DNA of 64,000 nt, taken from Mayamaea pseudoterrestris (taxonomy: Eukaryota). Location of the stretch: the NCBI GenBank assembly GCA_027923505.1, contig BROI01000016.1, positions 186,001 to 250,000 on the forward strand, given 5' to 3'. The position numbers were made by a program, and so were the translations under genes. Positions 44,596 through 49,219 of this stretch are shown piece after piece. The number at the start of each line of letters is the position of its first letter. Within the stretch, counting starts at the first letter, position 1. The notes under the pieces are model-generated. The model was not told where the DNA came from. It saw nothing but the letters and a program-made list of their open reading frames with translations, and made no database searches.

Positions 44596-44869
44596 TAAAC
44601 CACATATATATATATATTTAAATGCATGTAAGATAACTACGCACTGCTTGTATATTATATGCATATTGTTTGACGAGCGTTGCCTTGCCCAGGACGATGG
44701 ATTAGAGGCAGCGAAACGATAGCTGAAATCGCTGAACCGCTACGATTCTTCTTTTCATGCACGCTTCTTGCGTCGAAAACCAACCAAATCGACCATGACA
44801 TAACCGGCACCTCGGATCCATCATCGCCGTCGTCGCTACTACAATCACTATTACTTTGCTACTACTACA

Positions 44870-47800
44870 ATGGGAGTCCCTAAATTCTACCGCTGGCTGT
44901 CGGAGCGTTATCCGAAGATCATGCAGCGGCGCGGCGTTCGTCCCGACGTTGATCGCGCCATGGAGCACTTGGGACGCACCGCCGTTTGGATGCCGCAGCC
45001 GCAAGGAGACCTTGATACTGCTGCGGAAGGAACTGATAAAAAATTGTCCATCGAATCACTCAACTTGAAGCAATCAAGTCTTCCGTTACCCGATCCTCTC
45101 TCCGAGTCTGGACTCTTTCCAGAGATTGATCGCTTATACATTGACATGAACGGAATCATTCACGGCTGCTCCCACAGTAACCAAACGGACACTGAAGGAA
45201 CGTCAAACGTTTCCATGCAAGAAATTTGCAGCAACGTTTGCTACTACTTGGATCGCGTCGTGAAAGAAGTTGCCAAGCCAAACGAACTAGTGTACATGGC
45301 CATTGACGGAGTGGCGCCAAGGGCAAAGTTGAATCAGCAGCGAGCGAGACGCTATCGATCCGGGAAGGAGGGAGAAATCGAACGGACTGTCTATGATGCT
45401 CATGTACAAGCCATGGAGAAGGAAAAGCTAGCGTCGCTGGAAGAGCAGAGTCTAGGGGTGGAGCAGGAGGAGCTGAGGCATGCTGCGAGTCGAATGCAGT
45501 CAGTGGATGACTACGAGACGCTCCTTGATCATGAAAGCATCGCAAACAGTCAGCAGCAGCAGGAGCATGAACAATCATCATTTACTTCATCCAATCCAGT
45601 CAAGGAACTCCAGGATGGTAGATTCACTGGAAAGTTTGAAACGCAGGCGCCGGCAGAAATTGAAAACGATGACGTGCTCGACGAATCAGCAACGGACTCT
45701 TCCACTGCCACTACCACCAACAAGTTTCACTCCAACGCCATTACACCAGGCACGCCCTTTTTCCAGGAGTGCACGGAACGCATACTGGAATTCATTCAAG
45801 ACCGCATCAAGCACGATGACGACTGGAGCAAACTTCAGGTAATATTCTCCGGTCCAAACGTTCCAGGCGAAGGCGAACACAAAATTATGCAGTTTATACG
45901 CGAGCAGCGCTCTCTGCCAGACTACAATCCCAATTTACGCCACTGCATCATGGGACAGGATGGTGACTTGATCATGCTTGGCTTGGCGACGCATGAACCA
46001 AACTTGATGCTGCTGCGCGAGCAAGTGCTGTTTGACAAGCGAGCCGTTGATCGAGACGACATGGCTGGAGAGATTCCGTCACTTGACTTTTACCTTTTTA
46101 ATGCCAACTTTGAGTTGCTTCACATGAATGTATTGCGCGACTACCTGGCGTATGAACTGGAAACAATACTACCCGACAATCCATTTTGCTTGGAGCGATC
46201 CATTGATGACTTTGTATTTTTGACGTTTTTGGTTGGAAACGACTTTTTGCCGCACATGCCGGCGCTTGACATTGCCGACGAGGCATTCGATTTGTTGTTT
46301 TATACATATCGTGCCTTGCGCAAGCAGTGGGTCAAGCAGTCGCCAAAAAATCCATACTTGACGAATACTGGTAACATTGTTTCGGGCAAGCGACTGGAAG
46401 GCTTTTTGGCGGCGATTGGTGCGCACGAAGGCAAGTACTATGACTATAAGGATAGTGTCGTCGACTTGGATGTGCGGCGGGCGCGCGAAATCAAGTATGG
46501 GCGGCCGCAAACGCCAAGCGATGCAGTGCTTGAGCGCAAGGAGGAGTCGGACCGAATGCGGTATCGCGCCATGGTCGAGTCGGCTGCTACCGGAAATGCG
46601 AGTTTGCATTCCGACTTTACGCCAGTCCTTTCGGCGGCAACACTCAGCAAGGACGACAAGGAGCATGAGCGACAAGTGGAGCAACTTCACAAACTTTTGC
46701 AACTATCCGTTTCCGATACAAAGAGCATTGCCAATGTGATTGATGACACGGACTTGAAGGGAAGATACTACGCCGACAAATTTGACTTTTCACCGTTTGA
46801 CGCCGACAAGCACATTGCTTTGCGAAAGGCATATATGGAGGGACTTGTATGGAATTTGAAGTATTATTACGAAGGCTGCGTCTCCTGGGAATGGTATTAT
46901 CCGTATCACTACGGACCCTTCATGAGTGACTTGGTCGGTTTGGACGATTTGCTCGCGGAAATCACGTTTGAGGGTAAACTGGGAGCTCCTTTGAAACCGT
47001 TTGAGCAGTTACTTGCTTGTCTGCCGCCTTCGCACGCTCACTTGCTACCAAAGCCGTATCGTCGACTAATGAGAAACAAAACGTCGCCGATTGCCGATTT
47101 TTACCCGCCATCGTTCGTGATTGACATGAATGGAAAGCGATTGCCATGGGAAGCAGTCGTCTTGCTACCATTCATCGACTCGAACCGTCTCATTAATGCG
47201 GCCAGTGCCGTCGAGGAAAATACACTGACGGACGAGGAACGCCAGCGCAATTCACTTGTTGATACCATAGTCATGTCGAGTTCCGTCACTGACGGTGGAG
47301 ATGAAAGACACTTGTCAATTGTTCCGTTTGCCACCAGCCAATGGAAGTTTAAGAAGCGAAAGAAAGCGCCAGTCTTGCATCCAAAGGTGCTTCCAGGGAC
47401 AGAAACACCACTTCCTGGCTTACCCACCCTCCGGGACGGCTCTATAACGGGTTTGTGGCGCAAATACATCCCACTGAATGTGCATGGGGGTCGGAGTCGC
47501 TATAAGATCGCTTGCTTGGAAATGCAGAATGCTATACCAGAGATTATACCGCTCGACGCAATTGCGCGACAGTTCATTGGTACAGCCGTGGTGATCAACT
47601 ATCCACACTTTATTGAAGGTTTGGTCACGGCAGTGTCGGATTCATCGGGATTTATCCGAGGAACTGAGCATCGGCTCGTATCTTGGACGGCGCAGGAGCT
47701 TGCGGATCGGAAGAATCGTGCCAGAGAAGTCGTAGCGTCGTATGTGGTTGGAGAGAAGCTTGTGGGCACTGGTGGTTTGGCGCTTGCAGCGGGGCGGACA

Positions 47801-49219
47801 GCAATGGAGGATCTGGACGTACTCATGTTTGTCAGGCCATTGAAGGAGCTCAAGACGTTGCGCGACGGCACCGTCGGCAAAGTTTATGCCAAATATGAAG
47901 TCGAGGTTCCTCTGTTCGTCACGTCATGGGCTCCGCACAAACCGGATCCTCGCCTCGCAGGTCTACCGGCATTTCTGGAGAAGGATCCGTACCATAAAGC
48001 CGAATTAGTTGTTACGCATCGACAGTCCTTGCAAGACAACCCGAATGTTACCAAAAAGGGTGGGAATGCTTACGTGTTTCCGGCTCCGAGAGGCCTGAAG
48101 AGGGACCGGAAGCGATCGACTGCTGCGCGCGGTTTGCATACGAATGCTCATGGATTGTTTAGCTTTAATGGGACAGATTCCGTGAATCATTTATGTATTG
48201 GCGCCGCTTCACCAACTCGCTATTTACAAAAAGAATTTGTACAGCATTGCCCATTGCCTCTGCGTGCTCGTCAATGGGGACCAAGAGGGCAGGCGACGAC
48301 ACCTGTCTTATTCAATCGGCCGGCTAAGCTTCGGGCTTGTGCGACGGCACCGCAAACAAGATTTTTGGCTGGTGGAATCATGCTTGCTGGATTGCTGCTC
48401 TCGTTTACATCAGGAGCAGCAGCAAGTCGAGACGTTATGACGCATGGTGGAGCGCATGCACTATTTCAACCTGCTACTCGCTTACAAAAAGGCCACGGAT
48501 ACTCGCAAGCAATTGATGATTCCAATACCTTATCGTCGTGGCCCAAGTCCTATGACGCGGCCCCGCCTTTGCAGTTTGAACATGGTACGACGACTCTTTC
48601 TTTTATTTTTGAGCATGGTATGATTGTTGCTGTCGACTCTCGCGCCAGTTTGGGATCTTTCGTAGGCAGCAAGACGGTTGAAAAGGTTCTACCCATTCAT
48701 TCGCACATGCTTGGCACCATGGCTGGTGGCGCAGCTGACTGCAGCTTTTGGATTCGCAAGATTCGAGCGCAAGCCAAACTACATGAATTACAGTACGACG
48801 GCGAACGATTGTCTGTGACCCGGGCGAGCCGCATGCTCGCCAACGCCTTGTACGAGAATCGAGCGCTGGGCTTGTCAGTGGGAACCATGATGGTCGGCTA
48901 CGATGGCAGCAAGGCCAAGATATTCTACGTGGACAATACTGGCATGCGGATGGAAGGCGACATGTTTTCCGTCGGTTCGGGCAGCACCTACGCTTTGGGT
49001 ATTTTGGACACGGAGAGGCGCTGGAACATGAGCGTCGAGGAAGCGGTGAGCTTGGGCATCAAGGCGATTCGTCACGCCACCTTTCGCGACGCTGGGTCTG
49101 GAGGATGGATTAATGTATATTTGATTACTAAGAAGGATGGATGGAAGCATGTTTTTGCTCAGGACCTTGCTGGTCTGATTGTGACGACCGACGAAGTAAG
49201 AGGCGATTCGTCAGCATAA
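44870..49219 (+). CDS. XRN1-type 5'-3' exoribonuclease fused in frame to proteasome subunit beta5
   Basis: XRN motifs: MGVPKFYRWLSERYP, LYIDMNGIIH, AIDGVAPRAKLNQQRARRY, NAITPGT, PGEGEHKIM, DGDLIML, GNDFLPH, WYYPYHYGP, PFEQLL. Beta5 motifs: HG/TTTLSF...AVDSRAS...TMAGGAADC...FSVGSGS...RDAGSGG, with Thr1 at 48587. No stop codon between the two parts. Confidence 0.92.
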   Translation: MGVPKFYRWLSERYPKIMQRRGVRPDVDRAMEHLGRTAVWMPQPQGDLDTAAEGTDKKLSIESLNLKQSSLPLPDPLSESGLFPEIDRLYIDMNGIIHGCSHSNQTDTEGTSNVSMQEICSNVCYYLDRVVKEVAKPNELVYMAIDGVAPRAKLNQQRARRYRSGKEGEIERTVYDAHVQAMEKEKLASLEEQSLGVEQEELRHAASRMQSVDDYETLLDHESIANSQQQQEHEQSSFTSSNPVKELQDGRFTGKFETQAPAEIENDDVLDESATDSSTATTTNKFHSNAITPGTPFFQECTERILEFIQDRIKHDDDWSKLQVIFSGPNVPGEGEHKIMQFIREQRSLPDYNPNLRHCIMGQDGDLIMLGLATHEPNLMLLREQVLFDKRAVDRDDMAGEIPSLDFYLFNANFELLHMNVLRDYLAYELETILPDNPFCLERSIDDFVFLTFLVGNDFLPHMPALDIADEAFDLLFYTYRALRKQWVKQSPKNPYLTNTGNIVSGKRLEGFLAAIGAHEGKYYDYKDSVVDLDVRRAREIKYGRPQTPSDAVLERKEESDRMRYRAMVESAATGNASLHSDFTPVLSAATLSKDDKEHERQVEQLHKLLQLSVSDTKSIANVIDDTDLKGRYYADKFDFSPFDADKHIALRKAYMEGLVWNLKYYYEGCVSWEWYYPYHYGPFMSDLVGLDDLLAEITFEGKLGAPLKPFEQLLACLPPSHAHLLPKPYRRLMRNKTSPIADFYPPSFVIDMNGKRLPWEAVVLLPFIDSNRLINAASAVEENTLTDEERQRNSLVDTIVMSSSVTDGGDERHLSIVPFATSQWKFKKRKKAPVLHPKVLPGTETPLPGLPTLRDGSITGLWRKYIPLNVHGGRSRYKIACLEMQNAIPEIIPLDAIARQFIGTAVVINYPHFIEGLVTAVSDSSGFIRGTEHRLVSWTAQELADRKNRAREVVASYVVGEKLVGTGGLALAAGRTAMEDLDVLMFVRPLKELKTLRDGTVGKVYAKYEVEVPLFVTSWAPHKPDPRLAGLPAFLEKDPYHKAELVVTHRQSLQDNPNVTKKGGNAYVFPAPRGLKRDRKRSTAARGLHTNAHGLFSFNGTDSVNHLCIGAASPTRYLQKEFVQHCPLPLRARQWGPRGQATTPVLFNRPAKLRACATAPQTRFLAGGIMLAGLLLSFTSGAAASRDVMTHGGAHALFQPATRLQKGHGYSQAIDDSNTLSSWPKSYDAAPPLQFEHGTTTLSFIFEHGMIVAVDSRASLGSFVGSKTVEKVLPIHSHMLGTMAGGAADCSFWIRKIRAQAKLHELQYDGERLSVTRASRMLANALYENRALGLSVGTMMVGYDGSKAKIFYVDNTGMRMEGDMFSVGSGSTYALGILDTERRWNMSVEEAVSLGIKAIRHATFRDAGSGGWINVYLITKKDGWKHVFAQDLAGLIVTTDEVRGDSSA

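Follow-up and report, generated by a model that had tools for sequence, protein, structure and literature searches.

A conserved XRN1-proteasome β5 fusion gene of diatoms with a signal-like element between its two halves

A 64,000-nucleotide stretch of the genome of Mayamaea pseudoterrestris (GenBank assembly GCA_027923505.1, contig BROI01000016.1, positions 186,001 to 250,000 of the forward strand; referred to as the window below) carries one open reading frame (ORF) in which an Xrn1-type 5'-3' exoribonuclease is followed by the catalytic β5 subunit of the 20S proteasome. The fusion is genuine and old and is found widely among both centric and pennate diatoms; the linker between the two halves contains an element that resembles a signal sequence for the endoplasmic reticulum (ER). 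We give a probability of roughly one half to the reading that the gene encodes a polyprotein which is split at this internal signal, XRN1 staying in the cytosol and β5 being delivered to the ER lumen or to the periplastid compartment (PPC). Full-text searching of the literature found no paper on an XRN-proteasome fusion and, as far as these searches reach, the fusion is apparently undescribed in print. Databases carry automatic names for it, such as '5'-3' exonuclease/20S proteasome alpha/beta subunit'.

Results

Organization of the XRN1-β5 gene

The stop-to-stop frame runs from 44804 to 49219 on the plus strand and comprises 1471 codons. Translation from the ATG at 44870 yields a product of 1449 amino acids (aa) encoded by nucleotides (nt) 44870-49219 (plus strand), and exactly this protein exists as an annotated entry in NCBI nr. 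All four of its Pfam domains exceed the curated cut-offs, with E-values of 1e-81 for XRN_N, 6e-92 for XRN_M, 5e-8 for XRN1_D1 and 5e-43 for Proteasome (aa 1237-1419). The features of the gene are, in window coordinates:

44870..49219, plus strand: whole XRN1-linker-β5 polyprotein ORF, 1449 codons plus stop, no intron evident
44870..46024, plus strand: XRN_N, aa 1-385 (Pfam; alignment to Xrn2, 9dso_A)
46190..47275, plus strand: XRN_M helical domain, aa 441-802 (Pfam; Xrn2 alignment)
47411..48049, plus strand: Xrn1 D1 domain (Pfam match aa 848-1010; confident AlphaFold2 (AF2) fold to about aa 1060)
48050..48361, plus strand: predicted disordered tether (predicted local distance difference test, pLDDT, below 50; composition)
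48362..48427, plus strand: signal-like element, consisting of the core F1165-S1181 and GAAAS (1182-1186) (composition, hydropathy, family comparison)
48428..48586, plus strand: spacer/propeptide, aa 1187-1239, with a conserved PPL-x-F-x-HG end (alignment)
48584..48589, plus strand: predicted N-terminal nucleophile (Ntn) autolysis site Gly1239/Thr1240 (alignment)
48587..49216, plus strand: mature β5, aa 1240-1449 (Pfam, alignment, fold matches)

A sequence-only reading of the window had described a stop-free frame of 1449 aa holding an XRN core and β5, and the ORF scan and Pfam bear this out. Its account of the nuclease part, a core with acidic motifs and an Xrn1-type downstream segment, is confirmed by Pfam and by alignment to 9dso_A. 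It had also recognized a complete β5 with autocleavage site, Lys33 equivalent, GSG and D..SGG, features that prove invariant in 87 sequences, and had placed the mature N-terminal threonine (Thr1) correctly at Thr1240 (nt 48587), the aligned counterpart of residue 1 in mature β5 chains. Only the linker has to be revised: instead of about 150 aa, it measures 229 aa from the end of D1 to Thr1.

The fusion is conserved across diatoms

When the β5 part was searched against proteins of 796-2536 aa, 135 matches were obtained; counts are from the best 120 of these, and domains were tallied from precomputed Pfam annotation. Sought in other diatoms in this way, the fused architecture was found in 119 of the best 120 of the 135 long relatives. 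The combination XRN_N, XRN_M, D1 and Proteasome is present in 85 of them, the window's own protein included, and a further 34, N-terminally incomplete, carry XRN_M, D1 and Proteasome. Within the same best 120 of 135, every named fused match comes from a diatom. Raphid pennates are represented by Fistulifera, Seminavis, Nitzschia, Cylindrotheca, Pseudo-nitzschia and Amphora, the Thalassiosirales by Thalassiosira, Conticribra, Skeletonema and Detonula, and other diatoms by Ditylum and the radial centric Corethron pennatum. Fused ORFs occur in transcriptomes of the Marine Microbial Eukaryote Transcriptome Sequencing Project (MMETSP) from Detonula, Skeletonema, Pseudo-nitzschia, Corethron pennatum and, via its cluster, Ditylum, so RNA reads join both halves in other species. 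A single Atlas cluster of 73 members contains XRN_M in 100%, D1 in 100% and Proteasome in 99% of cases. According to the precomputed annotation, four fused proteins (P0016, P0017, P0022 and P0043) possess a SAP domain (PF02037) besides the fusion, accompanied by PF13297 in P0016 and P0022.

In principle, such an ORF could be an artefact in which two adjacent genes have been joined through coincidence, a sequencing error or faulty gene modelling. Merged models do exist. The odd one among the best 120 (P0109, 1734 aa) is a fish model that joins cadherin-24 isoform X1 to PSMB5; it looks like a merger of neighbouring genes and can serve as a control for annotation artefacts. However, the XRN1-β5 architecture recurs in 119 of the best 120 proteins, which stem from independent genomes, metagenomes and transcriptomes, and the chance that 229 random codons stay open at the base composition of the window is P = 1.35e-5. 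Contigs of related strains from four runs of one study (X1-X4) provided a further comparison. These contigs are judged to represent DNA because intergenic flanks are covered. A stop or indel in the linker had been named by the sequence-only reading as evidence that would speak against the fusion. The contigs from X1, X2 and X4 showed neither in the linker and no indel in the gene (X3 is noisy elsewhere), and no joint within the gene was seen in the X1-X4 contigs. Of 83 strain substitutions, 40 were analysed; 31 are synonymous, and 31 lie at codon position 3 (P = 1.3e-8). For the linker, the respective values are 10 synonymous changes out of 15 and P = 0.0085 for the position bias. This bias in the strain variants indicates that the linker is translated in the XRN1-β5 frame and is under purifying selection. 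With the variation in the linker following the codon pattern of the frame, we regard the artefact explanation as effectively refuted.

The exoribonuclease half is a shortened Xrn1

XRN_N reaches 274 bits (cut-off 22.9), XRN_M 309 bits (cut-off 23.8) and XRN1_D1 (PF18332) 33.4 bits (cut-off 26.2). The protein starts canonically with MGVPKF, aligned to residue 1 of Xrn2, and its acidic motifs DMNG, DGVAPRAK, GEGEHK, DGD and GNDF align identically to 9dso_A and recur in the consensus of 87 aligned sequences; we take them to comprise the catalytic residues of the nuclease. Canonical N-terminus and acidic motifs are thus as in the structurally solved Xrn1 (3pie from K. lactis, 2y35 from Drosophila) and Xrn2/Rat1 (9dso, 3fqd) proteins, and the core scores about 400 bits to Xrn1 and to Xrn2 structure chains alike. 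D1 is shared with Xrn1, and because this domain is present we assign the XRN half to the Xrn1 type, i.e., the cytoplasmic subfamily, apparently shortened to the catalytic core plus D1. The later Xrn1 domains (D2-D4, SH3-like) are unmatched by any Pfam family in the protein at E <=0.01, and the fused protein does not have the long C-terminal region of Xrn1, in which unfused, more distant relatives continue for about 600-900 residues after D1. An AF2 model of aa 811-1449, built from the 87-sequence alignment (mean pLDDT 70), is confident for aa 859-1060 and for the β5 domain; aa 1061-1237 have a pLDDT below 50, such that the region past about aa 1060 is predicted to be disordered. For the linker, including its hydrophobic core, AF2 gave no structure. 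When the whole model was submitted to Foldseek, β5 dominated the matches, and the search gave no information on the D1 region.

Unfused XRN1 orthologues were searched for with aa 811-1175 among representatives, and 85 of 113 matches were examined, the 28 excluded ones being mostly short. At E <=1e-30, β5 is carried by 35 of 46 matches, the remaining 11 being fragments. Among the 85 matches examined, no unfused diatom XRN1 could be clearly identified as complete. Five XRN-only ORF fragments with internal-Met starts (P0399, P0401, P0412, P0419 and P0430) end at most about 6 aa past the basic-plus-hydrophobic segment. The explanation may be an intron located immediately behind the signal-like exon in certain lineages, or the existence of tail-anchored unfused XRN1 genes.

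Two further observations concern the nuclease. XRN_N is interrupted by an acidic, Gln/Ser-rich low-complexity insertion of about 105 aa (approximately aa 178-283, nt 45401-45718), over which alignments to solved XRN structures jump. Among Atlas clusters, the second nearest to the whole protein (score 0.75) comprises 427 members with XRN_N/XRN_M; viruses (Nucleocytoviricota) make up 70% of the taxa recorded for it, and we mention it as a lead only.

The β5 half is catalytically complete and divergent

Thr1240 is aligned to residue 1 of mature β5 chains such as 1iru_L and 1g0u_K. In 87 of 87 aligned sequences Gly-1, Thr1, Asp17, Lys33, GSG and D-x-x-SGG are invariant, and the same holds for the equivalents of Ser129, Asp166 and Ser169. 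All listed sequence matches in the PDB (60/60) and all top Foldseek matches (50/50) are β5 or β5i (β type-8). A search of the Atlas with the β5 part retrieved generic β5 clusters of animals and plants only. The β5 half thus appears catalytically complete and, given the invariance of Gly-1/Thr1 in 87 sequences, self-cleavage is expected at this site.

The diatom-type β5 is, by sequence comparison, a divergent outlier. Over the first 200 mature residues, 16 named diatom sequences share 46-59% identity (mean 51.9%) with 10 named canonical β5s, a set drawn from streptophytes, Paulinella, a euglenid, a metamonad, a fish and three Amoebozoa. Among themselves, the canonical β5s are 60-80% identical (mean 66.7%), and the diatom-type β5s reach a mean of only 69%. 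In a quick maximum-likelihood tree of 54 rows (19 canonical, 34 diatom-type), all 19 canonical rows form one tight clade (Shimodaira-Hasegawa-like approximate likelihood ratio test 99, stem 0.58), the diatom-type rows fall outside it, and fused and stand-alone diatom β5s are intermixed without resolution. This pattern fits an old, faster-evolving paralogue. A transcriptome-derived β5 (P0252 / P0195) with a signal-like N-terminus and the propeptide end TPPLNFLHG lies on a long branch between the canonical and the diatom-type clades. Its identity to all other sequences is 50-56%, and it may represent a signal-bearing β5 of another lineage.

The linker carries a signal-like element

In the window protein, a basic disordered tail is followed by the hydrophobic core F1165-S1181, by GAAAS and by a spacer of 53 aa, which ends with PPLQFEHG directly before Thr1. 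The last 40 aa of the tether (1125-1164, nt 48242-48361) contain seven K/R and no D/E. The same order is seen in the family of 119 fused proteins, where the core starts a median of 75 aa upstream of Thr1. At least two basic residues are present in the 10 aa preceding the core in 117 of the 119, and the 40 aa upstream of it comprise 20.5% K/R and 2.2% D/E, their net charge averaging +7.3. The uncharged stretch spans 20 aa in the median. Beyond the core, the next 25 aa are near neutral and Ser/Thr-rich, and the final 25 aa before Thr1 are acidic. The best 11-aa hydropathy in the 119 linkers has a median of 2.39 and a minimum of 1.86, without overlap with 16 canonical β5 propeptides (median 1.11, maximum 1.53). 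With its n-h-c layout (basic, hydrophobic and cleavage region) and its strong positive-inside flank, the element looks like an ER signal sequence. The linker is otherwise poorly conserved, yet the frame is open in all 119 diatom sequences.

The same features could belong to an uncleaved signal-anchor in the ER or chloroplast-ER membrane, in which case XRN1 would be a membrane-bound protein of the cytosolic face and lumenal β5 would be freed by autolysis alone. A flank of +7.3 over 40 aa and an uncharged stretch of 20 aa do fit an anchor with its N-terminus inside, as does a semi-conserved spacing of small residues within the core. On the other hand, the cores are short, Gly/Ala-rich and followed by small residues, which is more like a cleavable signal, and autolysis normally needs ring assembly, such that a tethered precursor would have to assemble while anchored. 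We consider a permanent anchor unlikely.

It is also conceivable that transcription or translation starts internally near the core and gives rise to a separate signal-bearing β5, XRN1 being made from the long ORF. The window protein has a Met within the core (M1171, nt 48380), a Met is found between positions -12 and +6 of the core start in 40 of 119 fused proteins, and short 'complete' β5 ORFs exist in transcriptome data. However, 79 of the 119 have no Met near the core, the Met in the window would leave just about 8 hydrophobic residues, and none of the 119 proteins provides an in-frame stop for XRN1. Moreover, most of the short, high-identity β5 matches are fragments of fused genes, located on contigs of 1-2 kb that include upstream linker sequence, and the exact product of a start at nt 48380 was not present in the protein collection. 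As a general mechanism a conserved internal start codon was rejected, with Met near the core in just 40 of 119, and internal initiation in whatever form strikes us as quite improbable.

Two motifs in the linker deserve mention. In 51 of the 119 fused proteins (for example P0004, P0005, P0010 and P0013), a motif [LIVMFC][RK]GG, often followed by Asp/Glu, lies 20-30 aa upstream of Thr1; it is similar to the C-terminal end of ubiquitin and is absent from 48428-48586 of the window. Ubiquitin-like cleavage at this motif was considered and rejected: no ubiquitin fold lies upstream, 51 of 119 proteins at most could use it, and the window is devoid of it. In the basic tail upstream of the core, in a setting of about 20% K/R and 2% D/E, R-x-[FY]-[SAH]-[TSA] ('RSFST'-like) is found in 60 of 119 fused proteins and brings to mind either presequence cleavage motifs or an RNA-binding tail.

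Stand-alone β5 genes mark the module boundary

Stand-alone β5 precursors are present in Thalassionema nitzschioides, T. frauenfeldii, Leptocylindrus and a Proboscia-like sequence, and they begin exactly with a short basic stretch plus the hydrophobic core. As stand-alone genes start at the hydrophobic element, the boundary between the modules can be placed just upstream of it, and the element is part of the β5 module. The genomic setting is available for a Leptocylindrus-type gene on a locus of 15.8 kb (L001). An in-frame stop precedes this β5 gene, and no XRN-like sequence was detected in the 15.8 kb of L001 (best tblastn E-value 1.8, compared with 6e-81 for β5). Its upstream neighbours on the opposite strand encode a VTT-domain protein and a helicase:

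L001 683-4722, minus strand: Ski2-like RNA helicase (DEAD, DSHCT; Pfam)

The first coding ORF of the helicase gene starts with a hydrophobic signal-like N-terminus followed by 'KASSF', and the enzyme is possibly targeted to the plastid or the periplastid compartment.

In the window, the neighbours of the XRN1-β5 gene are unrelated to it: upstream lies a coiled-coil ORF without Pfam match and, 150 nt downstream, a convergent gene for a CMAS-type methyltransferase.

Discussion

A destination for a signal-bearing β5 is suggested by work on Phaeodactylum tricornutum. The account of PPC-targeted 20S subunits by Moog et al. 2011 (PMC3101018) names α2, two α7, β2, β3, β6 and β7, several of which were localized in vivo, and β5 is not among the PPC subunits reported there. 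In the screen described in that paper, the N-terminal ends of 10,025 protein models were submitted to SignalP; a cytosolic-type protein bearing a signal peptide counted as a putative PPC protein, and essential ones were required in two copies. A screen of N-termini such as this one would miss a signal that lies inside a fused model. Capless periplastid 20S proteasomes are attributed to diatoms by Cavalier-Smith 2017 (PMC5756292). Because of the signal-like element, the divergent β5 and the reported periplastid 20S subunits with signal peptides, separate compartments for the two halves are more probable than a coupling of RNA decay to cytosolic proteolysis.

The polyprotein reading can be spelled out as follows. 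Module 1 (aa 1 to about 1164) would be a cytosolic Xrn1-type 5'-3' exoribonuclease with a disordered, very basic tail, and module 2 (aa 1165-1449) a diatom-specific, signal-bearing β5 precursor. When the internal signal leaves the ribosome, the nascent chain would be directed to the translocon of the ER or chloroplast ER. The β5 part would then be translocated, and signal peptidase would cut after the c-region, at about residue 1186. XRN1 would stay on the cytosolic face, held there at least transiently by the hydrophobic core. Pro-β5 would continue on its way, with the periplastid compartment as the most probable destination, and would provide the β5 that the capless 20S proteasome has so far been missing. 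Upon assembly there, the rest of the propeptide would be removed at Gly1239/Thr1240.

Several points weigh against this reading. We know of no characterized cellular protein in which a signal peptide located more than 1,100 aa behind the N-terminus is functional, and the mechanism proposed for this organism has been drawn from sequence comparison and published work. The n-h-c interpretation was made from composition and hydropathy. The (-3,-1) rule is permissive, and 119 of 119 linkers pass it in a test run without a control. At the crudely placed cleavage site, the +1 residue is aromatic or Leu in 20 of 119 proteins and another residue in 99, and the 25 aa behind the core, with a mean net charge of only +0.5, make a weak candidate for a transit-peptide-like region. 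Tree and identities do not separate an old paralogue from an accelerated orthologue. A canonical diatom β5, which the cytosolic 20S proteasome would need, was not seen among the named matches of the best 120; it would score below these, which makes its absence there uninformative. A search with a canonical β5 that has a PPPL-type propeptide end (P0204) found, among its best 120 rows, Amoebozoa as named neighbours and no ochrophyte or diatom canonical β5. Finally, even with β5 added, the PPC set given for P. tricornutum (PMC3101018) would be without β1, β4 and several α subunits.

The fundamentally different possibility is that the fused protein is the sole β5 of most diatoms. A housekeeping subunit would then be synthesized within a 160-kDa XRN1 precursor, of which it makes up the C-terminal 14%, XRN1 and linker forming a giant propeptide freed by autolysis at Gly1239/Thr1240 or by prior clipping in the linker. 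XRN1 and cytosolic β5 would be made in equal amounts, and the hydrophobic segment would be a peculiar assembly or tethering element. The invariance of autolysis and catalytic residues in 87 of 87 sequences, with Thr1 as mature residue 1, is in agreement with this, as are the top 50 fold matches, all β5 or β5i, and the frame kept open through a poorly conserved linker in 119 proteins. That the named rows of the best 120 include no canonical diatom β5 points the same way, uninformative as it is. On the other hand, the signal-like N-termini of the stand-alone orthologues would misdirect a cytosolic β5, and the protein has diverged much further than canonical β5s have in any supergroup sampled. 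Half-proteasomes enclose the propeptides as they join to form the 20S particle. By inference, there would be no room inside for a folded domain of about 130 kDa, and an additional cleavage would be needed. The sequence-only reading had proposed just such a giant propeptide, coupling RNA decay to proteolysis. What stands of it is the single conserved ORF with intact catalytic residues and an autolysis site; the coupling itself is called into question by the signal-like linker element, by the divergence of β5 and by a propeptide of 130 kDa that would not fit inside. We regard a sole β5 as rather unlikely, though it is the strongest rival of the split polyprotein.

Comparison with known systems helps to define what would be special about a polyprotein split at an internal signal. 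PSMB5 and yeast Pre2 have the Ntn fold, Gly-1/Thr1 and the catalytic residues in common with the fused β5, whereas the extension preceding Thr1 amounts to 1239 aa here and to about 20-100 aa in canonical precursors, and the hydrophobic signal-like core of the fused β5 is absent from 16 of 16 canonical propeptides. The PPC subunits described for P. tricornutum (PMC3101018) are alike in that a 20S subunit follows a signal-like sequence and a spacer; in the fused protein, however, the signal is internal, behind a complete exoribonuclease, and the periplastid location is our proposal.

Two precedents exist for natural polyproteins of related design. At the capsid/prM junction of flaviviruses, an internal signal in a viral polyprotein is cut by host signal peptidase. 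A cytosolic protein, an internal signal and, as proposed here, an upstream protein held by the hydrophobic core of that signal are common to both cases. In contrast, the diatom gene is cellular, its downstream β5 would also process itself, and the signal-peptidase cut is a prediction. Ubiquitin-ribosomal protein fusions are natural fusion genes whose products are cleaved into two proteins. Like these, the XRN1-β5 gene would yield two distinct mature proteins in equal amounts from one ORF, but it lacks a ubiquitin fold and would be split by signal peptidase and/or Ntn autolysis.

If the internal signal is functional, diatoms possess a cellular polyprotein whose halves operate in two compartments, a strategy mainly known from viruses. 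Through this gene, the periplastid proteasome of diatoms would gain the catalytic β5 that it has lacked so far, which bears on the question whether the reduced periplastid 20S particle degrades proteins at all, and an Xrn1-type nuclease would be stationed on the chloroplast-ER surface. If, on the other hand, the fused protein were the sole β5, each new proteasome half would free one XRN1 and thereby hard-wire mRNA decay to protein degradation. Proteasome biogenesis in a major algal group would start from a 160-kDa precursor and would have to follow an unprecedented assembly route, the propeptide being far too large for enclosure. Either of these two readings would amount to new cell biology, and the natural unfused versions in a few diatom lineages are ready-made controls for experiments in transformable diatoms.

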